DNA of 61,999 bases, the filler included, from Dimargaris cristalligena (lineage: Eukaryota), in assembly GCA_003614675.1 (NCBI GenBank). It is 4 parts of 4 records of this genome, joined end to end, with 100 filler letters (N's around TTAATTAATTAA, not from the genome) between each part and the next. Parts side by side here need not be neighbours in the genome. Positions count along the whole stretch, not along the records: positions 1 to 15,456 come from ML002889.1; positions 15,557 to 30,986 come from ML002890.1; positions 31,087 to 46,510 come from ML002891.1; positions 46,611 to 61,999 come from ML002892.1. One strand, 5' to 3'. Positions 14,528 through 47,368 of this stretch are shown here, piece by piece. The position numbers and the translations under genes are program-made. The notes beneath the pieces are model-generated. The model saw only the letters and a program-made list of their open reading frames with translations, did no database searches and was not told where the DNA came from. Position 1 is the first letter of the stretch. Each line of letters starts with the position of its first letter.

Positions 14528-15079
14528 TGTTGCCTAAGCTATCCACTCTTAGTCCGTTAAGAGTCCTGGGGGGGGGCTTCTAATGGTTGGTGGGGCTTAG
14601 ACTCAGCCAAGTGGTTACTAGTGTTATGGTGGGAGTGATTCTAACTAAATAAGGGATATGTGCAGGCTGAATGCAAGGGACATGCAGCAGCACACTTACT
14701 AGTCAGTACAAGAGGGTGAGCATATAGGGAGTTTATTGGGAGTAAACTATGAGGGTAAGAAATAAGCTAAGGAACTTAACCAGTCCCAGAGGGGCCTGGC
14801 TATTTATACATAGGGACTACTCATAATGAGAGGTCCCAAGGAGAATAGGATAAGACTAGAAGGAGTAAAGGAAGGAGTCTTAACCAGGTGGCCTTGCTTC
14901 CAGAAGACTCTTATGGGAACTGGAGGGTCATTAGATCAGCCAGTGGAGTGTTGTGTGTGAAGTATTAGGGGCCAGTCATAGAGGGTTATATAGTAAGGGT
15001 AGGTAATATGACTCTATAAGGCAGGATAGGGCAGGACAATCAGTACTTCAGTATTTAGGTGGCATTAGGAGGGTCAATA
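14528..15079 (+). mobile_element. Solo LTR, family 1 (divergent copy A)
   Basis: Starts TGTTGCC and aligns by eye with 34443, 39078 and the reverse complement of 46788-47368; ends GTCAATA (mutated ...CA); flanked by a TTATA 5-bp direct repeat (14523-14527 / 15080-15084). Confidence 0.75.
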
Positions 15080-15150
15080 TTATACATTAAGAATTTAATT
15101 CATAGAGAAGAATACTTCTCTGGATAGTAATTAGCTTTATATTTACAATG

Positions 15151-15387
15151 TGTTAGACTATCTAATTCCCCTTAATCTAGACACCTTAGTGTCTATCCCT
15201 ATTAGGCCTTATAGTACTATATTAACCTTCCCATAATTACACATAGTACTACAGGACCACCCTATATCATGTAACCCTTCCCCTTTTGGACTCTACCTCT
15301 TTACACTAATTACTCAAGTACTGATCCAAAGACTCTTCCAGATACTAGCAGCTGTCTAGTCAGCCTATTTACCTATATCTTAGTCTT
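15151..15387 (-). mobile_element. Family-1 LTR 3' half (copy E), interrupted by a family-2 repeat end
   Basis: Begins TGTTAGACTATCTAAT (reverse complement of an intact ...TCTAACA terminus); colinear with ~46788-47045. Confidence 0.75.
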
Positions 15388-15456
15388 TGTGGTGAACTTA
15401 CCACATTTTTTACCTACTTTTATTTTTTATCTATTTTTCGCACTTATCGGAAGTAT
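15388..15456 (-). repeat. Terminus of a second repeat family (family 2), running into the gap
   Basis: Near-identical reverse complement of ~46667-46735; terminal palindrome TGTGGT-GAACTT-ACCACA. Confidence 0.75.
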
Positions 15457-15556
15457 NNNNNNNNNNNNNNNNNNNNNNNNNNNNNNNNNNNNNNNNNNNN
15501 TTAATTAATTAANNNNNNNNNNNNNNNNNNNNNNNNNNNNNNNNNNNNNNNNNNNN
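15457..15556. other. Artificial contig spacer N44-TTAATTAATTAA-N44
   Basis: Exactly 100 nt with an all-frame stop linker; identical structure three times in the window. Confidence 0.97.
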
Positions 15557-15702
15557 CCCTTTAGTTACCATATCCCTAACTTAAACTTTACCATTCGAAA
15601 CCTGAACCAAACTGATCCATTTCCTCACCTCTTAGAAGCATTGGTCTGTGTGCCCTCCTCATCCCCACCCTCACATCCAACCAAACTACCTTCTCCCCCA
15701 TA

Positions 15703-16939
15703 ATGTCAGCCGCTCAGCCCAACTAAGAAACCCGCCCCATCCATTGCCCCAGGCATGTATGGCCCAAGGGGGCAAACTCGAACCCTACACATATACCCCC
15801 CGTCCCCTCGGTCCTCAAGACGTCGAAGTTGCCATTGGCCATTGCGCCATTTGCGGCACTGACAACGCTTTTGGCATCCCCCAGAAGTACCCCGTGGTGG
15901 TGGGCCATGAAATTGTCGGACGCGTTACTGACCTCGGGGCCGATGTCCACGACTTGAAAAAAGGGGATACCGTCTGTGGGCTACATTTGTAAAACCTGTG
16001 AAAATGGGGACTGTGAAAGCTGTAGTAAGGGCCGGGACGCTTACTGCACCCAGATGGTCCTGACTTCCAGGCACCAATACAGCGACGGCTCGCCCACTCG
16101 GGGCGGTTTCGCCAGGTAAGTATTTTCACGAGTCCCGATATATGGGGTGCAGGTTATCCTGCCTTTTTTTTTCTTAAAAAAGCACCGGAATACGGTTTAT
16201 GATTAACAGTAAGCGGGAAAAAACTACGCAAATATGGCTAACCATGATAATAATGTCCACCAACACCGCCTACTTTCCTACGCCCCCTCCATTTTTTAGT
16301 GCGATCCGGGTCCAGGCCAAACACGCCACCCGTGTTCCAGCGCAGCTGGACCCCGCCGAAGCCGCCGCTTTAGTGTGTGCTGGCGTGACCGTTTATGTTC
16401 CCCTGGTCCGCTTCCAGGTGAAGCCGGGTGACCAGGTGGGGGTGATTGGCATCGGTGGCCTGGGTCACCCGGCCCTCCAATTCGCGCGGGCCCTGGGCGC
16501 CGATGTGACGGCGTTTACCTCCAAAGACAGCAAACGGGACAAATGTATCCGTCTCGACGCCCACCGTGTGGTCAATATCAACGACGCAGACCAAGTCCAG
16601 GGCGCCGCCAATTCCATCGACTTTATGCTCGTGGCTAGCAACTCACCCCACCTGGATTGGAATCAGTTGGCGACTTTTATGGCTATGCACGGTAAAATCG
16701 TGGTGGTGGCCGCCCCCGAAGTGCCCATTAGCTATAGATTGTCATTTTTTATTATGAAGGATATTCAAATCAATACGTCGTTGGTGGGAAGCATAAGCGA
16801 AATCCAACAGACGTTGGAGTTCGCGGCCCAACATGATATCCATCCTATCATCGAACGTCTAGATATGAAGGACTGTAACGAGGGATTACAGCGTATGCGC
16901 GAGGGCAAGGCTCGCTACCGTGTGGTGTTGTCCAACTAA
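15703..16939 (+). pseudogene. Disrupted copy of Zn-dependent (CAD/ADH6-like) alcohol dehydrogenase
   Basis: Compared with 19357-20666: TAA at codon 8 (15724), +2 nt at ~15748, 15-nt deletion at ~15863 (ISQID lost), -2 nt at ~15977 giving a stop at 15990-15992. Same intron position; exon 2 still open. Confidence 0.8.
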
Positions 16940-19356
16940 CCGATTCGCTGCTGTACCCCCGGTGGATGCAGCCGCCTGTCCACGGATGGTGTTTACGGAA
17001 GTTTAGCGTAAACATCATTACCAGCCAGGCTCCTCTGCCTGGGTAAATACTGTATCCGAATAAACTCCCCTTTCCGATATTATAATGACATTTCTTAGAG
17101 CAGCCAACGCCTCAGTGGCTGAAATATCACACTTAAGAGCTGAGATGAAAGGTCAAAGGGCTAGTCCTAATTACGGGCAAATTGGTCTACCCTTTACTAT
17201 AATCATCCACTGCGTAAAATAATGTGGACCTTCAAAAGCAGAAGGTATAAGCAATACTATAATTATACGACAGTGAAAATTGTATAAAAATGGGAATGGC
17301 ACCCTTGGCGGGGATATTCGGGTAGCATGGGTCAGTTACGCGCTTTTCATACATGTGTAGTGCTACATAGTGCATAATTGTATAAAAATCATTCGCCTAT
17401 TGGCTTTTTTCATCCCCTTCGATTTCTATCAGAACCAGCGATAAATGTTTATTTACACGGTTGTTAACCAACAGATATATCGGACATTACCTATTATTAA
17501 CTTAGCACTTTTACAATATTTGTTCTGTTAGGGTGCGGTCAAACGATTAATCGCTCGACCAATCTATCAGTAGGGTTAGTAATAATTCATATCATCGTTG
17601 AATCCAATAGTATTGGTATCTTTACCTATATTTTGTCCCTAGCTCTTATTATTACTGCTTGCCGTAGATATATCAGCAACCGATTCATTCAAACGATTTT
17701 ATCATTACTAACAAATATTCTAAACCAACCGATTGACAGTTTCTTCCTTTCTTTAGTACCACCGCTACTCAATTCTAAAAATATTTAAACTGAGAGTTCC
17801 AGTCGGATTCAAGGAAAAATTAGTCAGTCTTATAGCTCGAGTTTACTTATATTTTGCCCTTATATCTTCATAAATTCCCAAGTTAGTTTATTTTGTAATC
17901 CTTGCAGATTCTCTTTGCTTCTATTTGGAAATCTTTACACAATATCATTGACCATCTCTTAGTTACTCTACCCTTCCATAAATAAATTCGTAAAAAACCA
18001 CAATATCTTACCCCAGGTAGATTTCCCCCAAGGTCCCTATGATGAATCCAAACCTCCCACTGAGAACCCCGGTTTTTCAACCCAGAGACCCCAAGTATCT
18101 CTTCGAGTAATTTGGAGGCATCCACGGTTCATTTCTTCCCTCTAGTTATAATTTAACTAATATAATACCGCATATCCCAATTTTGTAATAAAATGGCCTG
18201 AGAGTAGCTTGAATGTACCCTATTAGTTGCGCAATATACCATAGCAAGACCCATACCAAGAGCTCTTGCGATTTTCCAGCATCCATTGCTATTATTGGGG
18301 TTCTGGAAGATATTCCATTTGTTAGCCTTACGGACGGGTCTTATAGTGGGTAAAAAGGGCAGTTAATAGAAAGGGAGGAATAGCAAATGGCAAATATAGG
18401 AAAAGACTATGCAGTATACGAAACTTATCTTTGTTAACATCCAAGGCCAAAGAAAATAAAAATGCAATTTTTTTAGTAACTTGAAAAAGTGTATCAATGC
18501 ACAGGTCATTTTAAAGCCCCTATACCATGTTATCAAATATATTTATAGACGCATAGATTATTATATATAAACTAGAGAATCAGGGCTTTCTCCTAGTGGT
18601 TAAAAATTATCCCCGACCTTATTAGATGCCGAGTAATTACTTCGCAAAATCAATGAGTGGGAAGCATTGAACATGGTTCGTAATGTACAAGTAAAGTGAT
18701 TTTAGTAGTCATTAAGTCTAAAAAATATATACACGGATATTGGGTTATACCGGCTAATGTAATCGGATAGGCTGGCGGACTTTATCACCTTCGGTGTTAT
18801 GCAGCCAATATTAAACATAGGGATTGTGTACATTTTAATTGGACTTGATAAGAGCAGAAACGCTCTGACAATTACCAAACCAGCTAATCCATGGTTTCAG
18901 TTGTGATGGATAATTTATTGCCCGCCCCGCCCAATGTTTTACTTTGCTTAGCCGAAGTGGGAATTCATCACCACCAACCACGCTGACCACCTAAGCCGGA
19001 ATTTGGGCATAGCACCCTTCCGCGTCCCCCATTAATCCATACATATAACCGTTAACGAGTCTATAGAAATTCCATCTTTGTGAATATGAGGTTGCCCATT
19101 ACTGGTCCCCATTATTAATTTGGCATTCCAATGGCTGCGCCGGTTTAGCCGGCGTATAGATGATTCGTCTATTAATGGGTTTATTTCCATTTATTATCGG
19201 ATAATAGGCGTCCCTTTAACCTACCCATCCTTAACTCACACTTTACTAATCGAAAACCAAACTAAATTGATATATTTTCTCACCAAGTAGCAATATCTAT
19301 ATAGTCGCGTTCCCTCACCCCCACATTCTGCCATAACCACCAACCTTTCTTCTACA

Positions 19357-20666
19357 ATGCCGTCCGCTCAACCCAGCAAAGAAACCCGTCCCATCGACTG
19401 CCAGGCCTGCATGGCCAAGGGGGCCAAACTCCAACCCTATGCCTACACTCCCCGTCCCCTCGGTCCCCATGACGTTGAAATTGCCATTGACCACTGCGGG
19501 GTCTGCGGCACTGACATCAGTCAGATTGACAATGCTTTTGGCATCACCCAGTACCCCTTGGTGGTGGGCCATGAAATTGTCGGACGCGTTACTGACCTGG
19601 GCGCCCACGCCCATGATTTGCATAAAGGGGACACCGTCTGTGTGGGCTACATTTGCGCAACCTGTGAAAATGGGGATTGTGACAGTTGTATTAAAGGCCG
19701 GGACGCTTATTGTCCCCAATCGGTCTTGACTGCCGGAGGCCAGTACAGCGACGGTTCGCCCACCCGGGGCGGTTTCGCCAGGTAAGCAATCTATCTATTT
19801 TTATCATACACGTTTTTGATCCCCAACCACACACATATATATATATATATGTAGCCTTTCTAAAAAACACTGGAACGTGGATTATAATTAAACGCAAGTA
19901 ATAAGCAATTACAGATGTGCCTAACCATGATAATAATGTCCGCCACCACCACCCACTTTACTACATTATTACACCCCATAAACGATATACCTCTCCATTC
20001 CCCCACTCCCTCTTCTCTCTCTTTAGTTCCGTCCGAGTCCAAGCCAAACACGCCATCCGCGTTCCCCCGCAGCTGGATCCCGCCGAAGCGGCTCCTTTAG
20101 TATGTGCCGGTGTGACCGTCTTCGCCCCCATGGTCCGTTTCCATGTGCAAGCGGGTGACCGAGTCGGCGTGATTGGTATCGGCGGCCTAGGTCACCTAGC
20201 CCTCCAATTCGCGCGGGCCCTGGGCGCCGACGTGACGGCGTTTACCACCAAAGACAGCAAACGGGACGAATGTACCCGTCTCGGTGCCCACCACGTCGTC
20301 AACATCAATGATGCGGACCAAGTCCAGGCCGCCGCTGATTCCATCGATTTTATGCTCGTGGCCAGCAACTCGCCCCACTTGGACTGGAATCAGTTGGCGT
20401 CTTTCGTGGCGTTGCACGGTAAAATCGTGCTGGTGGCCGCTCCGGAAGTACCCATTACCCTGAATGCCCCACCCCTCATTATGAAGGATATTCAAATCAA
20501 TACGTCGCTGGTGGGCAATATGAGCGATATCCAGCGGACGCTGGAATTCGCGGCCCAACACGATATTCATCCCATGATGGAACGTCTGGATATGAAGGAC
20601 TGTAACGAAGGATTGCGGCGTGTGCGCGAGGGCAAGGCCCGCTACCGCGTGGTGTTGTCGAACTAG
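19357..20666 (+). CDS. Zn-dependent medium-chain alcohol dehydrogenase (cinnamyl-ADH/ADH6-like), 2 exons, ~354 aa
   Basis: Exons 19357-19781 + 20027-20666 (1065 nt). Motifs: CGVCGTD, VVGHEIVG, structural Zn Cys cluster, APLVCAGVT, GIGGLGH, GKARYRVVL. Confidence 0.92.
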
Positions 20667-21180
20667 CCGATTCGCTTCTGTGCTCTCAGTTGGTGCCGCC
20701 CCCCGTCCACGGATGGTGTTTACGGAATTTCAGCGTAAACATCATTACCAACCAAGCCCCTACTTGGGTAAACACTACATTCGAATAAACATCTCTTTCC
20801 AGTATTTCGGTGATACTTCTTAAAGCAGCCTACGCCTTAGTGGCTGAAACATCACCCCCAAGAGCTGAAATGGAAGGGCAAATTGGGTTACCCTTTACTT
20901 TAATCACTCACTGGGTAAAATGATACGAACTTCCAAAAGCAGAAGGTATAAGCGATACTATAATTATGCGACAATTAAAAATGGCTGATAATACTCATTG
21001 ACAAGGGGGTATATGTGGCAATGGCGATGGAACCGTAACAAATATATATCAGGTGTATATGTAAAATGAAAATGTTAAAAAAAATGAGAATGGCTCTCTT
21101 GGGGAGGGGGGGATATTCGGGCGGTATGCGTCAATTACGCTCCTTCCAACCTCACGTGCACACGCCAGATTGAGGTTTAG

Positions 21181-30973: not shown

Positions 30974-30986
30974 GTATGTTAACGCT

Positions 30987-31086: not shown

Positions 31087-32505
31087 TAGAATCTGAATCA
31101 AATGCGAACGAAAAGAGAGTCGGTAATTATATTCTTACCGGTAACACCTGTCTCATCCAACGTGGTGATTTGCTATTCATCTGGATAGAACCTCTCACCT
31201 AATAATCACCTGAATTCGCGGCTCGGCCCGTAAAGCCGAAGGCCCTAGTTAATCAAACGGTCGTATCATAAGCGACGAGGAGTATTGGATAAAGCGGTAA
31301 ACATACCAATGGTCCTAACAGGTAATGGGGAGCCAATAACTCAGTGCCTTGGCCAATGTGGTGGCTACTTTATGGCATGGTTATTGGGTTTTCGGGGTCA
31401 TAAAAACCTTGTAGTACTTTTGAGAAAGACCATAGGGTAACTGATTAGGTATTTATATATTCGGCTGCTGTTGTTACTTCCACCCCGGCGGCTGATGCTA
31501 GCCCTGCCATTAATGACCTAGTAGTATCCGCTCCAGATGGTGATTTGGCCAGGGGCCTAAACAGCCAGGGAACTGGCCAATTAGACACCCCGGCCATCGA
31601 TGAATGACGAACCCACCTACCCGTAGTAGTGAGACTAGCATACGAAGTTCGCCGTTTCACAAGGCCAACTGTAGGTTCCAAGGCCCAGTGGGGCGAACTT
31701 TATGCATTATGTGCACTCCCGCGATAGAATACAATCCGACTATATAAAAAGTGCTCGGCCAAGGTAATATTACTCACTTAGTTTTTTCGCATCCCTACCG
31801 CCGATTTCTTCTCCCGCTCTCTTATATTCACAGTATATTCCCTAATAAAACGCTCATTACATTCGGCAATCCAACATCTCCAACACAATGGGTATTAGCG
31901 AAACCTCTATTTACTCATATTTCCGCGGCCTTAATCTTCACGGGATGTATCGCACGAAGTAAAGCCAGTGAAAAGATGACGCTAACGAGCTCCTGTATGT
32001 TTCCTTCTCTCTAACGGGCCTGGGCTGGGAGTTTGGCGAACAATTATACACTAGTATGTACATTTACGAGGAGTCGAAAAAAAAAACAAGGGTTAGTATA
32101 GAAAACGACAATTGGTTAACCCGTTGCCTTACACAAAGATGGAAACGGAGGGACGGGGTGGTTGTTGCCCAATGTAAGCTGTCCTAGCAGGGTGGTGAGA
32201 CTACAAACGGGTACCTACCAATGTGTGAACATCCACAGTATTATGTGTTGGTGATGATATTACATGTCCAATTAGAGGCATATATTATGCACCATTGTCC
32301 TAGTTGGCTCAAGGTGGTCTGTACCACGCCTACGGTATATATATCGACCGGGCTTTCATCACCAACACCCTACTTCTGTTTTTTTTATCACCTGCATTCA
32401 AGTCAACATTGTCATTACGATATCTAGGACTAATTTTATTCCTCGACCACACTGTGCTCTCATAATCTCGAATTCGCTACCCTACAAAGTCCCCGACACT
32501 ACAAA

Positions 32506-33660
32506 ATGTCAGACTTAAAGCTGTCGGGTGGCATAGTCGCCATAACCTGCCTTTTGTCATTCGCTGTCCCCGTTGCAACGACCGACCAGTATAGTAATAA
32601 CCCAGCCCAGGTAACTGCCGACCCGACTGCTTATGGGGTCGGCGACGTCCATCCAACAAAAGGCCTTGTCTCTTGGGCTCAGTCCCCAGGGAAACCCCGC
32701 TCACCCCCGGTGGACTCAACTGATGACCAATATCACCTAGATATCACATCGGGCCGGACACCTCCACCTCCACCTTCATCTCCATTCCTCCAATCCCAAT
32801 CAGGGGAGGGTATGGCTAGTACCCGTTCCAACCATCAGGCCGTCGAGCTAGTGGCAACATACGGTGACGAGGATTTATCAATTACCACCTACCTGGACTC
32901 CCTGACTCATATCGCTTTTTATCCAGACTCAACCGAAGGAGCCCAAACGGACCACCAGGACCATACCTTTTCCTCGCAAAACTATCCTGCAAATCCCATG
33001 TTCTCCGTCAGCTTCGGGGAATCGGACAATTTATTATCGTACGATAAATCAGAGACAGTCAACAATCGAAAGGGGGAACAGCCGTTTCCCATCACTGCTC
33101 CAGTGAGCTCGATTCGCAAGATACCCAGTAATCAAATACGCCAAGGCTTTGGTGGTGGGGGCCTACATTCGTGCACTCCTAAAAAACTGCGTCCAAAAGC
33201 CTTAACCCTTGAGGAAAGCATAATCACCTGTGCTAAGCTATCCAAAAAGGCATTTTCACAAGGCTACCCCCGGCATATCCAAAAGGAGGGCTCGCTCGAA
33301 CTACGGGAGTTTTTACGTAAATACATGTTCCATGCACGCATGTTTAGTCCAACTGATCACGTCGATCTCGCTGACAATATCAAGAAACTTTCAAAGCTCA
33401 TCAAGATTAATCAGCTCAAGATGGAATCCCCTTCCCTTATCTACGCACTTGAGTGGAACGCCAAACTCCAAACTATAGTTCCGTACTTCTTCACCGGTGA
33501 GCAGGGCTATTTGTGTGAAAAACTCCGGGCTAGTATAGGTAAATTATTGCCTTCCGTTCGATATAGTAGTATACCCATCTTTGGTACTCCTGATGATATG
33601 GAGAAGGCATTTAAAGAGGCCATTGCTGTTTTTATGGCCAATCAAGCCTTCAAGGGGTAA
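32506..33660 (+). CDS. Orphan secreted protein, 384 aa
   Basis: Intronless ORF; hydrophobic N-terminus (IVAITCLLSFAVPVA); disordered S/P/D-rich middle; helical-looking C-terminal ~150 aa. Confidence 0.75.
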   Translation: MSDLKLSGGIVAITCLLSFAVPVATTDQYSNNPAQVTADPTAYGVGDVHPTKGLVSWAQSPGKPRSPPVDSTDDQYHLDITSGRTPPPPPSSPFLQSQSGEGMASTRSNHQAVELVATYGDEDLSITTYLDSLTHIAFYPDSTEGAQTDHQDHTFSSQNYPANPMFSVSFGESDNLLSYDKSETVNNRKGEQPFPITAPVSSIRKIPSNQIRQGFGGGGLHSCTPKKLRPKALTLEESIITCAKLSKKAFSQGYPRHIQKEGSLELREFLRKYMFHARMFSPTDHVDLADNIKKLSKLIKINQLKMESPSLIYALEWNAKLQTIVPYFFTGEQGYLCEKLRASIGKLLPSVRYSSIPIFGTPDDMEKAFKEAIAVFMANQAFKG

Positions 33661-34442
33661 ATATATACGTTATTGCAACGATCTTGCTTTGGATTGATTG
33701 GGAGATTAGTGGCGTCGTTTTTCATACAGTGCAGCGGTCATATGTTTGCACCAATACCTTCAAAGAGTCCATTGAATTTATTTGAGTATAATTGTGCTGC
33801 TGTAGGCAGCTGAGCCAAGGCCGCGTAAGCACCGGAGCTAGTTACCAATCCAAGAAATAGTCATACTTTGGATGGATTCGAGTTCCCCGGACGATTAATG
33901 AGTCGATTCCATGGGAACATCCGGGGATGAAAGCATTATTATATTTCCTTATGCAAACTGATTCTCCTTTCCTTCAGCTTTCCAAATTATACTTCCATTT
34001 ATATTTATGCTTATTATTGACAAGGTTATAGGTTGTCAAAGTTGATGGTAATTTAAACCCATGATGATTGGCTACTTCAAATCATTTTATTATTATTATT
34101 AATGATCCTTTTTTTTATGAGTGGGGCTTGTGATTAACCGGCCTCTGGTGGATTCCTTCTTGGAATTGCACCATCTAACTACATATTATGAACTATTTTT
34201 ATTAATTATATCCATATCCAATGTGAGTGAGGACTAGGAAGACTGTCTTCTAACCTTCCAATTTTTTATTATTTTACTTCCATTTAGCATATTTACAACC
34301 ATAGTTTAGCCATTAGGTTAGTTTTTCCCCTACCATAGGGTTTTATAACCTATAATTATTGCAGTTAATATCTTTAGCTATAGTTATTTAGTTTGGTTGA
34401 TTTCTTATATATACTCTAGCAGTATCCCCTTAGTTAAAGGGA

Positions 34443-35025
34443 TGTTGCCCAGGTTAACTACTCCTAGCCCATCAAGGGTCCTGAGGATAGGCTTCTAATA
34501 GTAGGTAGGGTGTAGACTTAGCCAAGTGGGCTACTAGTGTTAGGTATAGGCATGGTACTAACTAATAAAGGCTACAGCAGGTATAGGCAAGGGATGTGCA
34601 GTGGGCACACTTACTAGTCAGTATAAGGGTGAGTGAGTGTATATAGAGTTTATTAGGGGTAAATCAGGGGGTAAGAATAAGCTAAGGAGTCTAACTAGTC
34701 CTAATAGGGCTTGGTTATATATATATGGAGATAACTCCAGAAGGAGGTCCCAAGGGAGGAATACTACTAAGGCTAGCAAATAGGTGAATAAGCCAACTAG
34801 ATGGCTACTAGTAACCGAAAGACTCTGATGGTAACTGGAAGAGTCTTTGGATTAGCACTTGAGTAATTAATACAAAGAGGTAGAGTCAAGAAGGGGGAGG
34901 GTTATATAATATAGGATGATCCTATAGTACCAGGAGTGACCATGGGAAGGTTAATATGGTGCTATAAGACCTAATAGGGATAGGCACTAGGACCTCTGGA
35001 TTAAGGAGGATTAAATGGTCTGATA
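34443..35025 (+). mobile_element. Solo LTR, family 1 (copy B, 583 bp)
   Basis: TGTTGCCCAGG...GTCTGATA; full-length alignment to the reverse complement of 46788-47368; almost no CpG. Confidence 0.8.
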
Positions 35026-36423
35026 AAATAAAAGTGTATGAGTAAATATAAAGCCTTATTTATCAACATGAGTAAAAGTAAAAAAAAGGCTAGCAGAGTT
35101 GTTTGGGATACATTCTGCTATGTGTTTTATTGAGTGACTATGAGCTGTAGAGAGAGTTGTGATCTAATAGTGTATATGATGGGAGAAAATTTAGAGTAAA
35201 ATGTGATAGAGATGGGAGCTGCATTTCTAACAATTTATTTATTTACAATATTACCCATTTCACTTATCATGTTCAGTGCTAACTAGCACTATTCAGAATC
35301 CCCACAGAAAACTTCACCCTTCCCCTCACCTTCTGAACTCCAAATCCCCGACAACACAGTTGCCTTGGCCAACCCCCTTGTCCTGATTTCCCCCCCTCCC
35401 AACCAGATAGGTAACTGATGAATCCTCCAGACACTTGGGTTGCTGAGCTATAATTGATATCCGTTAACTGTGTTTACTGAGATTGATCAATTTCTATGAC
35501 TTGTGGGGCTTCTTAGTCAACTATATAATTATGTGATAATGTTTTTCCCAAAATTACCCCCTTCTCCCTGCTATTGTCATCACAATTCTTTAGATAGATT
35601 TGGCAGGACAGTGTGGTTCAAATTATGGTTGGGCAGGAATCATGGATATATGTCACTTTTAAATAGATCCTTAATAGTCTAAAAAAAATAAGGATAATAT
35701 AATGGATTGATGTAAACAGCTCATCTATAGCATAAGCCATGGTTTCAACTACTAAGGGTCCATATGTCAGCCAACTGATGAGGTTATTTTGAATAGCCCC
35801 TCGGATTAAATTCTCTAACCAAGGAGCTTACCCCTTACTCGGACTCCTGTAGTAAAGTAATTGTGCTCGGTTCATTAAGTATACAAGATGTTTAATTGAA
35901 GTACACAATCGATATAAAACCGAAAATCCGCAATGGATCAAAAAAAAAAAGCCAGATGAAAAATGACTTACGACTGATGGATAAGCCAACCCCGCCAGGG
36001 GGAATCCGAGACTAGGCATAGTATAGAAGGGGGCTAAAGATAGCAGTGACAGCCGGGAATACTACATATAGTAAAAGGATATGAGTGCTACCATTGGGTA
36101 CTTTGCCCAAGCCATGACCAGTTGACTTGGTAATATATCCATAGGGGTAACCATTCCGGAATACCAGAGTTATAGTCAGATAACCTGGTCAGCAAAAATT
36201 TAAGATTGAATGGAGGTCACAGACATACTCCATACAGTGAGGCAAATCAAGAAACAGCTAAATTCCCGAGTCGGGGAGGAGGAGGTATGAAAAGCGACCA
36301 AGCTTCTTGGTTCAAAAATATCCAAATGGTGAAGTAATGTTACCACATGGTACCGTATGCGAGATTGTGCTCAACGAGGGAGGACGAGAACATCCCGTCG
36401 AAAAATAATAACTGACCCAGTTA

Positions 36424-37266
36424 TCAATTACCGATGGTACAGGTAGTAGGGACAATATCCACGGTACCCTCTGAAACGACCTTATTGAGAGTTTTGTAGT
36501 TAGCCTCGGTCTCGACGTACCAGTCGATTTGGTTATTACCGAAGCTCCAGCCTTCGTCGTCGACTCGCACACAACCATTGTGAGTTTTACCGTTAGGTAA
36601 TTTGACCCCCTTGAGTTTTGCTACTTGCAAGGTGGTGCCACGTTTCATGTCGTTCGCCGCGACGCTGTAGTACGGTACGAGCGTATTGTCTCCACTGCCA
36701 ATGGCCCCGTCCGTCACCTCGAAACACATATAATTGCTGCAGGAGCAACTTCCGAGGTTAATGGTTTTGCCGTTCGCTAGGATGGCGGTTCCCTCCATCT
36801 TAGCCTTATCGGCAAAATCTTTGGTCACGGAAGCCAGTTTCTTTTTGTCGCAGGTGCCCAATACCACGTTGCCGGAGTCGGAACTTTCTTGCTTCTCGGA
36901 CCAGTAGAAGGTGAGCTTGACCGATCGCGACTTGGTATTGGATTTCGAGCTTGATTTGTTATCCGAGGAATTGTCATCGGAATCGCTGTCCTTCGAAGTG
37001 CTCGCTTTCTTGGACTTCGAAGACGACGAGGTGTCGGACTTCTTGGAGGACTTGGATGAAGACGAATCATCGGATGAGTCATCCTTGGAGTCGGATTTTG
37101 AGCCCCGGCGCACTAGGGGAAGGGCTGCGTGGGAATAGGAGCTACCTGCCACCGCCCACTGTCCTACGGAGTAAGCCTCGGTGATTGGAGGGATAGGAAG
37201 CCAAACAGCGGCTAACATAAGCACAGCAACACCCAGCAGAGACATGAATCGATTGGAGTGCACCAT
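36424..37266 (-). CDS. Secreted protein with S/D/K-rich linker and C-terminal 3D (MltA-like double-psi barrel) domain
   Basis: Signal peptide, LVRR dibasic site and low-complexity linker, then LTFYW, KMEGT..LANGKTIN, LVPYYSVAAND, VDDEG, NQIDWY, which match the 3D-domain Asp pattern by eye. Confidence 0.75.
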   Translation of the reverse strand: MVHSNRFMSLLGVAVLMLAAVWLPIPPITEAYSVGQWAVAGSSYSHAALPLVRRGSKSDSKDDSSDDSSSSKSSKKSDTSSSSKSKKASTSKDSDSDDNSSDNKSSSKSNTKSRSVKLTFYWSEKQESSDSGNVVLGTCDKKKLASVTKDFADKAKMEGTAILANGKTINLGSCSCSNYMCFEVTDGAIGSGDNTLVPYYSVAANDMKRGTTLQVAKLKGVKLPNGKTHNGCVRVDDEGWSFGNNQIDWYVETEANYKTLNKVVSEGTVDIVPTTCTIGN

Positions 37267-39077
37267 TCTGGATATTGAAGGAAGTTTTTTGGTGAGCGAT
37301 TAAAAAAAGAGAGAGGAATGTGTAGGGGGGACGACGGACAAACTACTGAACTGAATATATTAAATGACCAGCAAATAATATACTAAAATAACACCTCAAC
37401 CTTAAGGATACTTTAATTCAAACTGATGAAATAATAGAGCTAGTTAAGAGCAAAAAACTAATAGGAAGATTGTGTAGCGGGAGTGGAGAATAGTATCGGA
37501 GGGTTGAGATGTAATCAATAGTTGGCGACGACCGGTAGGAAAAGAGAAGAAGATGTAGAAACTGAAGAACACTTGGATAACCGCTGGTACAGGCCGTATT
37601 TATAAGATTTTCCTAACCACTACCTCAGACAGGGACCCCTTTACTTTGAACTCCCCCTCCTCCCTTGTAGACTTGAGCATTAGTAACCAATATGACCCTA
37701 ACCCTTCTCCCTATAGAGGAAACGGGCATAGTATTACCCGACATGGGGCGTTGTTATTTCAACATTGCTTGGGCACCGGTCCACTTTGACAATCGACAAG
37801 TCCCATTATACAGGCCCGATTATCGATGGCCCGAGTCAACTTCGGTAGGGTGGGGCTCAGTCGAAGTGATCCGCCGTTGCCCTTCCTTAGAGCAAATGAG
37901 CGAATAATTCGCCCTAACCATTGGGCACTCGCCCAATCTATAGCCAATAATTAAAAATCACCCACCCTAGTTTTACCAAGGCAAGAAAAAATCGACTTGG
38001 CGTGGCCGGAACCATATATATCCGATTCTTTCCGAAGGGCTAAGATTGCCGGATTAACGGGTGAATAAATTTCATTAAAAAAATATCAGCGTACAATAGG
38101 GGGGTTGGAAAGGGGGAAGGGGTAAATATTATTCCGCATATTAGAGAGTATACTCTGGAAAGACCAGGGTACCAAATGACTGGATAAAATTAAACATAAC
38201 GAATTGTGAAATAAATATGAGGGAGGTATCCCATGGTCCTGTAATTCGAAATACTCTTTAACGAACAAGCAGTTATATCACCCGCTCTCCCCATTCTCTC
38301 TCCCTCACCCTCTTGCTTCCTCCCTTTTTCTTTCGACAAAAGTTGCATTGCACTATTCGAGAGATTGCATTACTCTGTGTTCCTCGTAGTTGTGCCCCTT
38401 GCTGAAGCTAAATACAATAAGACAGTGTGTGTTAGGCCATACACATTCTCTTTTACTCATGAAGCAGTTCTGCTCTAGACCATCTTTGAAAGTAATGGTA
38501 TTAACGCAGGGTGGCATATCCAGCTTAAAGTGTGGCTGTAACAGTACCTATGAACACTAAATTCAAGGAAAATAAGATGCTATATCTGTGTTAATTCGGA
38601 ACACCGGTTAGGCAATGGATACATAGTAGTGGCAAGTTCCTACAAGAGTTAAATGAACCATACAATATAGTAACGGGTTGTCTTTATAAAACTACTGCAG
38701 AATTTCGTGGCAATAAGCTAAAAGTGTTTTTGTACCAGTGACGTTACTTCTACTTCAGTAGCTGACACTGTCCCTGACAATAACAACAAGGTGGTACTCT
38801 TGCCTGAAGGTGATGTGGCCAAGAGCCTAGATATCCAGGGGACCGGTTATGCATACACCCCTGATGCTGATGAATAATGACCCATTGGAGAATAAAATTA
38901 GGACTAGCATATATAGTTGGCCTCTCCACCAGTTGACCTCAAGGCCCTAAGGCCACCGGGAGTATCATCTACACTCACCAACTTTGATAGTATTGATGTA
39001 TGAGTGAAAGAGAGAGTACAATTAACAGCAGGAAATGGATAGAGAAAAACTAGAGCTTTTTATTAATAATTCATAAT

Positions 39078-39605
39078 TGTTGCCCAGGTTAACCACTCTT
39101 AGTCTATCAAGAGTCCTGAGGACAGGCTTCCAATGGTAAGTGGGGCTTAGGCTTGGCCAAGTGGGCTATTAGTGTTAGGTATAGGCATAGTACTAACTAA
39201 TAAAGGCTAAGTACAGGTATAGGCAAGGGACATGCAGTAGGCATACTTACTAGTCAGTATGAGGGGGAGTAAGTATATATAGGGTTTATTAGGGGTAAAC
39301 TGGGGGTAAGAATAAGTTAAGGAATTTAACTAGTCCCAATAGGGCCTACTTATATATACATAGGGATAACTCCAAAGGGAGGTCCTAAGGGAAGGATACT
39401 ACTAAGACTAGAGGATAAATAAATAAGCTAACCAGATAGTTATTAGTATCCAGAAGACCCTGATGGTAACTAGAAGAGGCTAATAGATTAATACTAGAGA
39501 AATTAATATAAAGAGGTAAGGTCTAGCCATCAGAAAGGGTATATGTTAATAGATGGTACTGGGTGTGACTATGGGAAGGTTAATATGGCACTATAAGGCC
39601 TAATA
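39078..39605 (+). mobile_element. Family-1 LTR (copy C, 3'-truncated)
   Basis: TGTTGCCCAGGTTAACCACTCTTAG...; colinear with copy B up to GGCCTAATA. Confidence 0.8.
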
Positions 39606-40201
39606 CTTATTTACCCTAATCTCTATTATTATTTGGTATATAACCCAGATGTATTATTACTAATGAGTGTAATCTGTCACCTATCCCCAACAACCTGGGA
39701 CAAGTGTGAGGAGTTGCTTGTGCCCACCCACTATCCTCCAACCACCTCCACTGACGTCTTAATCGACAGGCCAATCTAAACAAGTGGCTTTATTTAGAGA
39801 GATATCCTACCCCCAACCAATGCTGATACCAAGGTATATGATTAGAAACCAATTTTATATCCATCGAAACCAGTGCAGTCCGAATAGAGCGCGGTAAAAG
39901 TAATTGGATATACCTTGTACTTTTTTTTAGAAACCGAATAAAAGTCCGAAATGCGGACAATGGTGGGTGAAAATTAAGTAAGAGGTAATGAAGGTGATCC
40001 CAGAATGGGGGGAGTGATTATGAAAAGAAGAAATGAATATCGAGTCAAGAGGAGGATAAGAAGTGCCCTTAAACAACTAAGGCAAACAAGTCGGTAGCTA
40101 GAGCAATGCTGAAGGATCGTCCAGAAGGTTAAGGCCGACATAGCTCCTCCTATCTAAACGCACGCACAAAACTAGAGGAGGATGTGGTAAAAGTGAGATA
40201 C

Positions 40202-40225
40202 ATATATATATATATATATATATAT
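40202..40225. repeat. (AT)n microsatellite just downstream of the CCT5 stop
   Basis: ~12 AT units; similar tracts at ~19834-19850 and ~23561-23580. Confidence 0.9.
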
Positions 40226-40236
40226 ACAGAACTGAT

Positions 40237-42417
40237 TTACTCGTCGCCGTAGTGAGTGATGACATCGTCAATCTTCAGGATCATTTTGACTAGCTGGGTA
40301 GCCAGCAGGAACTGTTGGCGTTTAGAGATGAGAGGGTCAAATACATGTTGTTCACGCATATCGTTGGACCCCTTGTGCATACAGTCGATACCCAGTCGGC
40401 TATTCTGGGTGCGCACCTGCTCGGACTTCACGTCAGCCAGGGCATCGATGGGGGACAGCCCACTGTTTTCGGCCAAGGTCAGAGGCACGGCATCCAAGGC
40501 AGCAGCGAAGGCGCGCATGGCGTACTGCTCGATGCTGCTGATCTGGTCGGCTTCCCGGGCCACGGCCAACGAGCAGCTGATTTCGGCAGCTCCGCCACCG
40601 TAAACGACCCGCTTGTCGCGGACCATGTTACGCACCACACACATGGCGTCATGCAGGGAGCGCTTGGCTTCGTCGATGATCATCTTGTTGCCACCGCGCA
40701 CGAAAATGGTCACGGCGCGGGTGTTAGCGCAGTCTTCAATGACCAGCATCTTATCCCGGGTGGTTCCGAAGCTGATTTCACGCACCAGACCGGCGTGGCC
40801 AAGTTTCTCGGGGCTCAGGTCTTCGAAGCGGGGCACGATGCGGCCATTGGTGGCAATGGCGATGAGTTCCAACTCGGGACCACCGACCCACCGGACGGCC
40901 GGCAGATTGTTCTGCAGCAACAGGTGGTTGGCTTCGTCGTCGAAACCCCACTGGCAAATAACCAGGTTGGCCCCGGCATCCTTGACCTGCTGGATCATTT
41001 CCTTGAACTTATCCGTTTCGTAAGCCTGGAGCTTCTGGTATTCCTCCACGGAGGTGATATCGAGCTTATGCTTAGTCTTGGGCTTGGGGGGCTCAAAGGG
41101 GCAGGTGAGGATGGCCATCTTGACGTCATGGATTTCACTGGGCATCTGGGGATGGGACATATCCTTGTCCACCACTACACCGCGTACCAGCACCGTGTCG
41201 GTAAGGGACCCGCCGACCTTACCGTCCACCTTGATCAGCTCAAAGTTGACATCGCCAGTCTCCAGATTAGCCACAGCAAGGACAGCGTCCACGGCGATGT
41301 TGGCGAATTGGTCGTGGCACTTGGACACGATCTTACTACCCAGACAGGTCTTGGCCGTTTTGAGCAGGTTAGTGATGTTGCCGGGACCGAATTCGATCAC
41401 GTCCGAGTTTTCCTCGAGGGTTTTCACGGCGACCTGACAGGCCTTCTCAAACCCGTCCGCGATACGGATGGGGTGGATACCCCGGTCTAGCAGTTGCTCG
41501 GCCTGCTCGAGAAGGGCACCAGCGAGTACGACGACACCAGTGGTACCGTCACCAATCTCATCATCCTGGGACTTGGACAGCTGGACCAGAAGTTTGGCGA
41601 CCTGGTGGGTCACTTCCATCTGATCCAGGATGGTGGCACCATCGTTGGTGATAGTGATATCACCGTCGGGCGAGATCAGGATTTTGTCCAAACCTATTGG
41701 GACGAACAGCGTGGGGGGGGGGGTGCAATAAATAGCAGTGCGCCAGGGATGTTAGTAGTGGAAGTGGGAGAGGCGGTATTAAGGTTTGTCGCACTTTTAC
41801 CTGGCCAAGATCTATCGTATTTATTAGCTAACCGATGGGGAAATGTGGGCGACTAGGAAGAACCACATTGGCTTATGATAATAACGACGATATGCAATAC
41901 TTACCGCGGGGGCCAAGCGAGGTCTTGACGATATTAGTCACAGCTTTGGCAGCCAGGATGTGGGACTAGGGGAGCGGGATCAAATGCCATAGTAAAATGA
42001 ATACGGGAGTGTTATTAGCGATAGGACCAGGTATTGTCGTGGATCGGATAGCATATGGCCAGGAGTCCATCCGTACAGAAAGGCATTCCGGCCCGGGTTG
42101 GGGGGCGATCAGAAAGATAACTCTAGGCCATCTACCCCCCATGAGTGGGCTTCCATCCGAAGCTGAGCATCCACTTGGACGGATGCGCTGGACTCGGATA
42201 GAAAAGGGAGAGGTGGGCCACCCGAACTGGACTAGGCAAGTCCCGATCCAGCCAGATCGGCCGTCGACTTGTAAAATAATAAAGCAGATATTCACAGTCA
42301 AGTCCGTTAAGAATGTACCTTCTGAGCCTCGAGACCAGATTTGCGAGTCTTCTTCTGTTGTTCCCTCACAATAATGATGGGACGGCCATACTCGTCCGTG
42401 GCGTACATGGCATTCAT
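40237..42417 (-). CDS. CCT5: T-complex protein 1 subunit epsilon, 3 exons, ~538 aa
   Basis: Exons 42417-42319, 41965-41905, 41693-40237 (1617 nt). Motifs: [45 protein letters not shown], and epsilon-type [16 protein letters not shown] and [14 protein letters not shown]. Confidence 0.96.
42032..42265 (-). ncRNA. Candidate intronic structured RNA (H/ACA snoRNA-like) in CCT5 intron 1
   Basis: On the host strand: two short 5' hairpins, a long hairpin, an AGAGTTA hinge (imperfect H box), a second hairpin with an internal loop, then ACA+3 nt. Confidence 0.4.
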
Positions 42418-43508: not shown

Positions 43509-46500
43509 ATGCTGAACCACGCTGCGCTTGGGGAGGCTACAGTGGAGGCCTCCCCGTATTCCAATCGCCTATTCCTCTATGTGAACCAAACCCCATACGA
43601 GCTAGTCAACCCCGCCCCCGAGACCACCGTCCTCCAGTTTCTGCGCGACCAGGGTTTGACCGGCACTAAACTGGGCTGCGCCGAAGGAGGCTGTGGTAGG
43701 TACCCTTGGTGTATTCGACAATTTACCGGCTTTTCATTCGTACCATTCTTGCTGTAGGGTAGGTCGATTTGCTCACTCTCCGCTTTATTAACAATATATC
43801 GTATATCCCTTACATCCATTGTATACGGCCAATTTGTAACGCAGGGGCCTGTACCATCGTTATTGCTAGTCTCGATCCGACCACCCTACGAATTAGCCAT
43901 CGTTCCGCCAACGGCTGTCTCCTGCCCCTATGCAGTCTCGACGGTAAACAAGTCATTACCATCGAAGGCATCGGCAATTCCAAGCAACCCCACCCCGTCC
44001 AGGTAAATACACATGAATTCTGTGTCCCGCCGGGCAGGTTCAGATATATGCTTAGCGCATACATACACCCTTTGGCCTATCTATCAACTGATCTTGAGAG
44101 GAGATGCACGCCAGATAGTCCCCCTTCCATTCTCCCTCTTTCTCCCATGGCTGATCACACTAATCAACAACTAATGGTTGACAATCGATGGTGTACTCAA
44201 TGGTGATTGGCTAGGAACGACTGGCCGCCCTGCACGGCTCCCAGTGCGGCTTTTGCACGCCCGGAATTGCCATGTCCCTCTACGCCCTACTGCGCAATAA
44301 TCCCGAGCCAACTGACCACGACATTGAGGATGGCTTCGATGGCAACCTCTGTCGGTGCACGGGCTACCGACCTATTCTTGATGCCGCCAAGACCTTTTCC
44401 GTGGCCCATGACGACCCTAGCCCCAGCCCCCCTTCAGCGTGCCCCGGTCAACACTCCTGTGGGAAATCCCGCTGTTCGGAGCAGGAACACTTGGAATGTC
44501 GCCAGAAACATGCCGATCAAATCGATGATATTGAAGAACTTCAGCCCATCCGTTTATTGGAAAAAGTAAGACCACTCAGTAGCACGGCCCTTCTAATACC
44601 CGTAGCCCAGGCATTCAGTAATTATGGTACTTTGTGTCACTAGGGGGTTTACTAACCACCCCCTTATCTGATTTCACCAAATACACTGCTCCAGCACCAA
44701 TTTGCGCCATACGAGCCAGCCACCGAGATGGCGTTCCCGGAGGCCTTGGTCCAGTACGGTCAGAAGAGACTAAGCTCGGCTGCTACTTCCCTCAGGTTTC
44801 GCGGTAAATGGTGCAGCGACTTCTACAGTCCTACATCGCTGGACGAACTCCTCCGTATCAAGGTAAATTGCCCACGATTGATCAATAGCTATCCAACTCT
44901 TATCCACCATATAATTACTTAGCTATCGTTCCTTATTCCACATACCTCCATTAGCGCTACCAATGCCTACACTTGGAATCTAGCAATATTCTAATAGCCT
45001 TGGCGGAATTCATATGTATCTGGGCTGATTAAATACCTCCCATCAGAATCAATTCCCCAGCTGCAAACTCCTGTCGGGGAATACTGAAGTCGGTATTGAA
45101 ACCAAGTTCAAATACCAGGTCTACAACGTTCGCGCCTTCGTGGGCGACATCCCTGAGCTCACCACCGTTCATGTGGATGGTAGGTTATCCACTAATCTGT
45201 GGGAGTGGTTATCGCTGATCAGTGATACCTAGCCCTATTGCTAATCTAAAAGTGTCTAATACCATTAATTTAGAGAAATAATACTGTCAACATACACACA
45301 CTGGTATCCATTTCTGAATATTAGCTCACCGTTTACCCTCTAAAAATTGTGCCTTGGGACAACTTACTCATTCAATCAACCTAAAATACTCTTGGTCGTC
45401 ATAACCAGGCGTGGGTGTGAAATTCGGTGCCAATATCACTTTATCGGCACTCGAGGACGAGCTGACTAAGCTGGCCAACACCCTAGAGGTAGGTTACATT
45501 CCTTTGCTCAATTTTACCCGAAGTTTAGATTCAATGTAGCTCTGCCTGAAGGGAAACATATTGCTCACCTTGACCATCCTATGGTGAAACAAATCAAGTC
45601 TGGCTCAAAGAAAATTACGCTTGCCTTACCCGTTTGGCACTCCAGGTCATGAAAGAACCTACTCTCTTAACGTTTATTAATAGCAGAAAATGTTTGTGCA
45701 CATCCCCCCATACCTTCCTTCCTATTAGGCCCACCAAACGGAAGGACACAAGGCCATCCTCACCAACCTTAAATGGTTTGCCGGTCGCCAAGTGCGTAAT
45801 TTCGCCACCATGGCGGGTAACATCGCGACCGCATCACCCATTTCCGACCTTAATCCCGTTTTGATAGCGTGTCAGGCGGTGGTAACTATCCAGTCACTCG
45901 ATGCCCCCCCGCGTGAGGTCCCCATGTCGAAGTTTTTCCTCGGCTACCGTAAAACGGCTCTCCAGCCCCACGAGGTCTTGACCCAAGTGTTCATCCCCCA
46001 TTCCCAGCCCGGCCAGTATATACGTGCCTACAAACAGGCCAAACGCAAAGACGACGACATTGCCATCGTGAACGCCGGCCTTAGTATCCAACTGGACTCA
46101 GATCCCGAAGGCCACTGGTGGGTGCGGGACTGTAGCATGGCCTTTGCTGGCATGGGCCCCATATCCGTCCAGTCTAAAGCCACCGAGCAGCATCTCGTAG
46201 GGTCGGACTTTGCCAATCCCGAAACCCTCAATTCACTCATGACAGTCTGCCAACAGGAGCTACGACTGGATCCAGGGGCCCCCGGCGGTATGGCGGAGTA
46301 CCGTCTGGCTTTGGCTTCCAGTTTTGTGTTTAAATTTTGGCATGAAATTTCTTGCCTTATTCAAGTCAACGGCTTTTCTGCGAAGCAGGGCCATGATACC
46401 ATGGAAATAACCCGGGAGCTATCCAAAGGCCTCCAGTACTACGCTGAAACAAGGTAAATATGCCTATATTACATTTCGGAGCGCATCAGTGGTTCTCACC

Positions 46501-46510
46501 CATTCACTCG
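43509..46510 (+). CDS. XDH: Xanthine dehydrogenase, 5' part (Fe-S and FAD domains), multi-exon, truncated by the gap
   Basis: [101 protein letters not shown]. At least 7 exons (approx. 43509-43696, 43846-44002, 44215-44566, 44695-44862, 45048-45179, 45410-45488, 45730-46453). The Moco domain is absent from the window. Confidence 0.93.
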
Positions 46511-46610
46511 NNNNNNNNNNNNNNNNNNNNNNNNNNNNNNNNNNNNNNNNNNNNTTAATTAATTAANNNNNNNNNNNNNNNNNNNNNNNNNNNNNNNNNN
46601 NNNNNNNNNN
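46511..46610. other. Artificial contig spacer
   Basis: N44-TTAATTAATTAA-N44. Confidence 0.97.
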
Positions 46611-46735
46611 AAAAATGACCATACTCGTCAGGGGCAGGGGCAGGGGCTCATTCACTCGTCAGGGGTGTACTTCCGATAAGTGTGAAAAATAGATAAAAAA
46701 TAAAAGTAGGTAAAAAATGTGGTAAGTTTACCATA
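46611..46735 (+). repeat. Family-2 repeat terminus at contig start
   Basis: ~46667-46735 matches the reverse complement of 15388-15456; preceded by CAGGGG repeats; contains AATAAA; ends TGTGGTAAGTTTACCATA. Confidence 0.7.
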
Positions 46736-46787
46736 CTGGCTATACATTTAACCCCAGCTACCTGGCATAAAATCTTAACCTTCTCCC

Positions 46788-47368
46788 TATTAGACTATCT
46801 AATCCCCCTTAATCCAGACACCATAGTGTCCATCCCTATTAGGCCTTATAGTACCATATTAACCTTCCATAGTCATCCCCAGTACAATGGGATCATCCTA
46901 TATTATATAACCCTTCCCTTTCTGGACTCTGCCTCTTTGCACTAATCACTCAGGTGCTGATCTGAAGTCTCTTCCAGTTACCATCAGAGTCTTCCAGATA
47001 CTAGTAGCCATCCAGCTGGCCTATTTACCTATTCCCTAGCCTTAGTAATATCCTTCCCTAGGGACTTCCCTCTGGAGTTGTCCCTGCATATATATAACTA
47101 GACCCCATTGGGACTGGTTAAATCCCTTTGCTTATCCTTACCCCCCTAGTTTACCCCTAATAAACTCTATATATTCACTCCCCTTATACTAACTAGTAAG
47201 TGTGCTTGCTGCATGTCCCTTACCTATACCTACACTTAGCCTTTATTAGTTAGTACTGTGCCTGTACCTGACACCTATAGCCCACTTGGCTAAGTCTAAG
47301 CCCTGCCTGCCATTAGAAGCCTATCCTTGGGACTCTTGATGGACTAAGAGTGGTTAACCCAGGTGATA
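46788..47368 (-). mobile_element. Solo LTR, family 1 (copy D, 581 bp)
   Basis: Reverse complement aligns end to end with copy B; both termini mutated (TG to TA); flanks CTCCC (46783-46787) / CTCCT (47369-47373) look like a target-site duplication. Confidence 0.82.

Follow-up and report, generated by a model that had tools for sequence, protein, structure and literature searches.

RIP-like mutation of CpA, named for repeat-induced point mutation (RIP), is usually treated as an ascomycete trait tied to RID. CpA signatures were reported for RID/Masc1 genomes alone, and CpG signatures alone where only a Masc2/DNMT1-type gene is present (PMC4352252). RIP clusters of Neurospora are single-stranded in 91.9% of cases (PMC7296669), and the DIM-2 branch of RIP also mutates single-copy flanks (10.1101/115501). 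Transposons of Zymoseptoria tritici undergo mitotic, Dim2-dependent CA>TA mutation and carry CA methylation at about one-third to one-quarter of the CG level (PMC8016269). Among early-diverging fungi, Phycomyces transposons have CG and CHH methylation, with 5-methylcytosine (5mC) in repeats also noted for Linderina (PMC11258239), and the high RIP index of Zoophthora radicans, published with stated caveats, already suggested a RIP-like signal outside Dikarya (PMC10515909). A 2025 survey of 1,239 genomes listed RIP-like signatures in Ascomycota only and scored Dimargaris cristalligena as 'no_rip' (PMC12543289). Here we describe 61,999 nucleotides of the D. cristalligena assembly GCA_003614675.1 (the window) that contain copies of a solo long terminal repeat (LTR) family. 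Alignments of this family and of other repeats in the genome demonstrate a real repeat-directed C>T process at both CpG and CpA in a zygomycete-grade fungus.

LTR copies in the window

The window consists of four contigs joined by N spacers, so the copies that it contains are not neighbours. A first-pass annotation, made from the sequence alone, had proposed five copies of one solo-LTR family of ~550 to 580 bp. Self-comparison of the window found a repeat start or end at all five positions, as follows.

14528..15079, + strand: copy A, complete 552-bp solo LTR (TG...TA) of the A-type subfamily, with a perfect 5-bp target-site duplication (TSD) at 14523-14527 and 15080-15084
15151..15351, - strand: copy E, the 3' ~200 bp alone of a B/D-type LTR, 84% identical to D and adjoining a younger repeat
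34443..35025, + strand: copy B, complete 583-bp solo LTR (TG...TA), no TSD
39078..39605, + strand: copy C, with ~50 bp missing at the 3' end
46788..47368, - strand: copy D, complete 581-bp solo LTR, both termini TA, TSD 4/5

Thus A, B, and D are complete, but C is short at its 3' end and E is a 3' fragment. A represents a separate subfamily from B, C, and D, with 72 to 75% identity over the first ~415 bp. The near absence of CpG holds in each window copy (0 to 1 CpG) and extends to the surroundings, with two CpG in all from 33923 to 35348 around B and none from 38958 to 39754 around C or from 46675 to 47505 around D. Two target-site duplications, the number proposed earlier, are present, at A (5/5) and D (4/5), with none at B.

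Genome searches returned 43, 49, and 45 matches from 40 candidates scored each, and the 845 to 1153 first-look candidates indicate that the family probably comprises hundreds of copies. Among the A-type copies, which are typical solo LTRs, 23 of 28 have a 5-bp TSD matching at four or more of five positions (shuffled mean, 1.1). In the B/D-type alignment a TSD accompanies 8 of 45 copies. Age alone should not erase TSDs, and their scarcity among B/D-type copies (e.g., window 34443-35025 and loci L002 to L061) possibly reflects nonallelic LTR recombination or a different insertion route; shifted or 4/6-bp TSDs gave no convincing register for B-type copies. No parent element with primer-binding site (PBS), gag-pol, and polypurine tract was found at the 15 reverse transcriptase (RT) loci and in the 20 extracted stretches sampled, which cover a minority of 80 RT matches. 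Only one of the 15 RT loci (L099) has an LTR match beside it, with no PBS or TSD evident there, and a search of a phage collection with copy B gave no match. Distinct copies include no pair above 91% identity in 1611 pairs. One pair (G000:C548 and G000:C2181) is identical in both sequence and flanks and represents a recent segmental duplication or an assembly duplicate.

Mutation spectrum of the LTR family

For the spectrum, 49 B/D-related copies were extracted and three were dropped (one identical duplicate and two misextracted), leaving 46 that include copy A and a few A-like copies; one more, truncated, was omitted from the strand and TSD analyses. Former CpG sites were defined as the 36 columns in which both TG and CA occur. 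These columns hold 17 CG, 557 TG, 557 CA, and 432 TA cells, i.e., CpG survives in 17 of 1563 and its loss to TG and CA is symmetric. Both LTR start positions that had been read as former CpG carry TG and CA among the copies, and the terminal CA has turned to TA in 23 of 45 aligned copies, again as first proposed.

With former CpG sites removed, C>T changes were found in 463 of 1447 CpA cells (34 sites), compared with 222 of 2453 CpC (60 sites) and 211 of 3044 CpT (73 sites). The corresponding rates are 0.29 to 0.32 for CpA, 0.09 for CpC, and 0.07 for CpT (per-site Mann-Whitney p, 1e-10 to 1e-15). Under the strictest exclusion, which discards any site with even one TG copy, the CpA rate is 0.30 (251/829; 19 sites; per-site p = 6e-10). 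No CpA column keeps C in >90% of copies, and most CpC and CpT columns do. The first-pass annotation had made its proposal depend on the CpA>TpA rate exceeding that of CpC and CpT once ancestral CpG was excluded; the three- to fourfold higher rate upholds it, and because the CpA excess survives this exclusion, the repeat-directed CpA mutator is real. The original comparison of B with C points the same way, with a difference where the next base is A at 28 of 50 sites, compared with 11/59 for CpC and 15/79 for CpT, counts that include former CpG sites. Naive pairwise values of ~0.55 to 0.63 for CpA-context differences among B, C, and D are inflated by these sites. In the A-type set (28 of 30 extracted copies used), C>T rates are 0.185 at CpA, 0.092 at CpC, and 0.064 at CpT, the last two suggested to be inflated by subfamily variants because CpC/CpT sites are linked among A-type copies.

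CpA states show no linkage between sites, which indicates that the changes arose separately in each copy and rejects subfamily inheritance of TpA states. The bias follows the 3' base, and all four NCA contexts are raised, without an APOBEC-like 5' base preference. CHG-type methylation was also considered and rejected, because the few sites available show no clear elevation of CAG over the remaining CAN contexts and a low value for CTG.

Other repeats and controls

Further repeats and several CpG-retaining sequences were compared with the LTR family, including the following features of the window.

15388..15456, + strand: end of a different, younger high-copy repeat, CpG kept, reaching the contig end
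46611..46735, - strand: second end of the younger repeat family (315 first-look candidates; scored matches 91 to 98% identical)
15572-17282 and 19227-20983, + strand: zinc alcohol dehydrogenase (ADH) duplicate pair, 75% identical, coding
48001..48053, + strand: short diverged match to the LTR 5' end, CpGs kept, single occurrence in the genome search

In 68 copies of the unrelated young repeat, C>T rates are 0.197 at CpA (site median, 0.147), 0.017 at CpC, and 0.056 at CpT, and 137 of 463 CpG cells are intact. Two decayed Gypsy copies, polarised three ways, have changes at 46 of 566 CpA sites versus 24 of 948 CpC plus CpT sites (p = 1.5e-6). The CpA preference over CpC/CpT is thus two- to fourfold in the LTR and Gypsy copies and larger in the young family, and CpG survival across the LTR and young-repeat sets ranges from 1 to 30%. 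The young repeat has a TG start, a terminal hairpin, and >300 candidates; its copies lie at many contig ends, and it probably breaks the assembly.

The C>T transitions are confined to CpG-depleted repeats and are absent from CpG-retaining controls. Neither the intact Gypsy lineage L094 (p = 0.83) nor the CpG-retaining pair L097/L101 (2.1 kb, 90% identical; p = 0.85) has a CpA excess. As a test of a homology trigger, the pair is unaffected at this identity and L094 is intact, though both may be recent insertions. Single-nucleotide differences from a second isolate likewise show no CpA excess outside the LTR (6/1546 versus 12/3124 sites; p = 1.0), in a small sample (15 kb with 25 clean differences). 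Copies B and C also occur in the second isolate, and within B a CpA>TpA is the sole clean difference listed. The ADH pair and the piece at 48003, put forward earlier as internal controls, keep their CpGs and so demonstrate that the effect does not reach the whole genome, but they do not allow RIP to be separated from methylation. Both are weak controls: the ADH genes, in which CpA change is no higher than CpT change, are coding and only 75% identical, and the match of the 48003 piece to the LTR spans ~30 to 40 bp at most.

In L094 (G000:C1772, 2-3334), a Ty3/Gypsy pol frame with normal CpG runs uninterrupted for 1111 codons; three decayed copies are 85 to 90% identical to it. Among the other RT frames, several exceed 1000 codons and are likewise open, which shows that decay has spared some elements. 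A 55-bp piece of L094 (3280-3334) occurs at 100% identity at seven other contig ends and represents another very young repeat. In the ADH copy at 15572-17282, an in-frame stop lies close to the start and the open reading frame list shows no long N-terminal frame, in contrast to the copy at 19227; the former may be a duplicate in decay whose CpG is still present.

Strand, age, and flanking DNA

Neither CpG nor CpA changes are overdispersed between strands (dispersion p, 0.2 to 0.9), there is no correlation between neighbouring sites, and young copies with few mutations behave in the same way. In simulations, 20 or fewer single-strand rounds were rejected (p < 0.05) in six of six tests and 40 rounds in two of six. 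Together with the 5 to 30 mutations per copy, these limits indicate that nearly every mutation was its own event.

CpG and CpA decay are coupled. CpG survival and CpA mutation are inversely ranked in young copies (rho, -0.64), and in old copies TA at former CpG sites tracks CpA load (rho, 0.61), whereas CpA load is unrelated to CpC/CpT load (46 LTR copies; rho, 0.08). CpA change per transversion is 19 to 23 in three families, a clock-like relation to age. Per cytosine, CpG is lost about three to eight times faster than CpA, which is therefore not the main target; in the young, unsaturated family CpA decays at about one-third to one-quarter of the CpG rate (0.22 versus 0.61; ~0.16 by site median). 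The order implied per cytosine is CpG > CpA > CpT and CpC. TA occupies 28% of former CpG cells, a value about equal to the CpA rate.

In the flanks, CpG/GpC is 0.07 within 100 bp of the LTR and 0.78 at 1 to 1.5 kb. CpG loss runs 0.3 to 1 kb past the LTR and fades smoothly, also when other detectable repeats are masked. TpA/ApT is raised within ~200 bp, which fits CpA decay that fades faster than CpG loss, and the flank dinucleotide ratios fit CpA decay of ~0.25 to 0.3 at 6 to 50 bp, 0.15 to 0.2 at 50 to 200 bp, and 0.05 at 200 to 300 bp. CpA decay therefore appears, from composition, to spread into the flanks, a spread that would also be compatible with RIP, whose DIM-2 branch hits single-copy flanks.

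Accordingly, the repeat-directed CpA mutator with a RIP signature that had been proposed stands as C>T change at CpA beyond CpG decay, but not as RIP in its clustering or target, as there are no single-strand clusters and CpG is the main target. The identification with RIP proper is not sustained: CpA and CpG losses are coupled and appear to enter the flanks together, and no RID or DIM-2 was detected in the incomplete assembly. Nor is CpA>TpA, which was correctly noticed, unique to RIP, since Zymoseptoria Dim2 generates it in mitosis (PMC8016269).

Host and methylation machinery

Taxonomy was checked with the following gene of the window.

40237..41751, - strand: CCT5 (TCP-1 epsilon), on the contig carrying B and C

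It is 99% identical to that of Dimargaris cristalligena, with other Dimargaritales next at 85 to 88%, and the closest matches of the DNMT1 of the host genome are also Dimargaritales. Dimargaris cristalligena is an early-diverging, mould-parasitic fungus. The host is therefore not a member of the Pezizomycotina but of the Kickxellomycotina, outside Dikarya, in agreement with the supposition of the first-pass annotation, and the pattern is not ordinary Pezizomycotina RIP.

A PF00145 profile search at E <= 0.1 returned two loci: one DNMT1 and one short exon that, judged from a sequence motif, is presumably DNMT2-like. The machinery search suggested earlier thus yielded a DNMT1 with RFD, BAH, and methylase domains and the catalytic PCQ motif, but not RID/Masc1 or DIM-2, for which neither PF00145 nor two DNMT protein queries found a candidate (a loose first look at an incomplete assembly, with no true DIM-2 query); the two queries returned the DNMT1 locus alone. 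The DNMT1 gene (L063, 2724-6770; G000:C729) is truncated at the contig end, and its final ~430 codons could not be located in the assembly. As even the 3' end of DNMT1 is lacking, absence of RID, DIM-2, and DNMT5 is not established. The sister-species DNMT1 orthologue scores far closer to DNMT1/MET1 than to 9BAP/9BAQ, presumably the DIM-2 entries. Five other Dimargaritales gave one DNMT1 match each, and no second methyltransferase of sister Dimargaritales was seen among 120 of 5415 matches, both sets being filled by DNMT1 and neither reaching as far as ascomycete DIM-2. A gene with the chromo/pre-SET/SET layout of Clr4/SUV39 is present. At one position of the target-recognition loop, where Gln is frequent among DNMT1 orthologues, the Dimargaritales enzymes carry Ala or Thr; as Rhizophagus and Arabidopsis likewise depart from Gln, we draw no conclusion from this.

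Possible mechanisms

On balance, we lean towards heterochromatic DNMT1-family methylation at CpG and, more weakly, at CpA, followed by dispersed deamination. Solo LTRs left by a retrotransposon at hundreds of places would each seed a small silent chromatin domain, probably H3K9 methylated, that spreads a few hundred bases into the flanks. A DNMT1-family enzyme would methylate cytosines in this domain, mainly at CpG and at CpA to roughly a quarter or less of the CpG level, and the methylated cytosines would deaminate singly on either strand. CpG would be lost first, to TG or CA, and CpA, together with the CA/TG left by CpG loss, would drift to TA with age. What is observed is the spectrum, its confinement to CpG-depleted repeats, and changes that are independent from copy to copy and from strand to strand, in a genome with DNMT1 and Clr4-like genes. 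The process is best described as methylation-linked decay with a RIP-like CpA component that fails two defining tests of RIP. We advance more tentatively, and consider doubtful, the narrower proposal of a Dimargaritales CpA mutator without RID or DIM-2. In this proposal a single DNMT1, guided by heterochromatin rather than by CpG, would methylate, or methylate and deaminate, CpA at a large fraction of the CpG rate, and a RIP-like signature would build up in mitosis.

Several points weigh against DNMT1-family methylation as the explanation. CpA decay evidently continues in copies nearly devoid of CpG, and its targeting must therefore be independent of CpG maintenance; to our knowledge, CpG-independent targeting is not known for fungal DNMT1, and this keeps an unassembled DIM-2-like enzyme in play. 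CpA decay at one-third to one-quarter of the CpG rate is also high for a CpG maintenance enzyme. The methylation itself, an enzyme that writes methylated CpA, and passive mitotic deamination are all steps that we infer. The copies are the best-scoring matches to the window copies rather than a random sample, and the flank fit assumes that low-GC control windows represent the composition before insertion. In addition, DNMT1 is itself incomplete in the assembly, and a second enzyme may therefore be unassembled. In published work, Masc2/DNMT1-only species showed a CpG signature only (ten genomes; PMC4352252), and both precedents, Phycomyces (PMC11258239) and Zymoseptoria (PMC8016269), have DIM-2.

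It is accordingly conceivable, but rather unlikely, that DNMT1 explains the CpG loss and that a second, unassembled methyltransferase, either DIM-2-like or some other de novo enzyme, writes methylated CpA or actively mutates CpA in mitosis. The gap at DNMT1, the persistence of CpA decay beyond that of CpG, the reports of DIM-2 in Phycomyces and other early-diverging fungi (PMC7862722, PMC11258239), and the mitotic CA>TA mutation by Zymoseptoria Dim2 (PMC8016269) speak for such an enzyme. However, the profile search and the DNMT queries gave nothing beyond the two loci described, the single DNMT1 match in each of five other Dimargaritales argues weakly in the same direction, and CG, the main target in Dimargaris, is unmutated in Zymoseptoria (PMC8016269). 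A route independent of methylation, by a cytidine deaminase or by missing or error-prone repair within heterochromatin, favouring C followed by A, is improbable. It would cover CpA decay without CpG, DIM-2, or RID, but the bias is set by the 3' base with all four NCA contexts raised, whereas APOBEC-type enzymes have a 5' base preference. The equality of strands and the postinsertion origin of the changes are also unlike editing during reverse transcription.

Classical homology-triggered, premeiotic RIP by a RID-like enzyme at CpA, on top of separate CpG methylation decay, is very improbable. It would share the CpA preference irrespective of the 5' base, the confinement to repeats, and the lack of distinct LTR pairs above 91% identity; the flank mutation by the DIM-2 branch (10.1101/115501) and the Zoophthora index (PMC10515909) are also compatible with it, and many very weak rounds could mask strand clustering. 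Nevertheless, the single-strand clusters of Neurospora (PMC7296669) have no counterpart in Dimargaris even in lightly mutated young copies, L097/L101 is unbiased, L094 keeps its 1111-codon frame at 89% identity to decayed copies, and the loose search of the incomplete assembly detected no RID. Ordinary CpG decay alone, with the CpA excess due to hidden CpG sites, inherited variants, genome-wide bias, or amplification damage, is scarcely credible and, at this level of testing, already refuted. Naive pairwise counts are indeed inflated by former CpG sites, but the excess remains with every site showing one TG copy removed, the terminal CA of the LTR is affected, CpA states are unlinked, and CpG-retaining DNA is unbiased; moreover, B and C are shared by the second isolate, with CpA>TpA as the single clean difference listed in B.

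Other features of the window

Single-base mismatches to read contigs, which may be assembly errors, were found at 41713, inside the CCT5 region, in one run and at 45704 in both runs; the gene at 45704 is presumably xanthine-dehydrogenase-like. Long frames without a Pfam match lie at 36424-37299, 32434-33660, 50904-52169, and 12911-13546, and two of the four look secreted, with signal-peptide-like starts. Positions 1-1000 are CpG poor (observed/expected, 0.23) and match no part of the solo-LTR family in the window.

Comparison with known systems

A literature search covering few subscription papers found no report on repeat mutation or 5mC in Dimargaris. CG deficiency was reportedly described in basidiomycetes and lower fungi by Clutterbuck in 2017 and may bear on the Dimargaris pattern. 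Alignments of four repeat sets from a Kickxellomycotina fungus reveal a CpA>TpA bias, and genome screens can evidently miss such a process; the 2025 survey was restricted to scaffolds of >50 kb with 2-fold k-mer thresholds and can therefore miss repeats on short contigs (PMC12543289). Conversely, a CpA or TpA index alone is no proof of RIP. Should DNMT1 act alone, an outgroup of Dikarya would offer a test of how RIP arose. A DNMT1-only CpA mutator, if true, would break the published link between the CpA signature and RID/Masc1, and it would point to RIP-like erosion as an ancient feature of fungal DNMT1, with RID a later addition built upon it.

The Dimargaris LTR shares TG...CA ends, short inverted termini, and 5-bp TSDs (23 of 28 A-type copies) with solo LTRs of integrase-type (Ty3/Ty1) retrotransposons but was not found joined to an internal region, and most B/D-type copies lack a TSD. 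With RIP of Neurospora crassa and other Pezizomycotina, which have RID and DIM-2, the process shares C>T change in repeats, preference for CpA over CpC/CpT, spill into flanks, and TpA enrichment. It differs in the lack of single-strand clusters, the dominance of CpG as target, the escape of some 90%-identical repeats, the nondetection of RID, and a host outside Dikarya. As in the Dim2 system of Zymoseptoria tritici, CpA>TpA occurs in transposon DNA only, and the CA:CG methylation ratio of that species is near the CA:CG mutation ratio of Dimargaris; however, CG there is methylated but barely mutated and Dim2 is required, whereas Dimargaris has lost CpG almost wholly and DIM-2 was not detected (PMC8016269). 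Near-total CpG loss in repeats and a DNMT1-RFD enzyme are shared with Microbotryum and rusts, which have a Masc2/DNMT1-type gene only and are reported with the CpG signature alone, to which Dimargaris adds CpA (PMC4352252). Transposons of Tuber melanosporum share the order of CpG first and CpA second, but this species is an ascomycete with RID/Masc1 and a second Dnmt1-family gene (PMC4352252). Zoophthora radicans and other Entomophthorales share RIP-like composition in a zygomycete-grade fungus without a true RID homologue; the evidence there is a window index without alignments, whereas Dimargaris, in a different subphylum, provides an alignment-level spectrum (PMC10515909).

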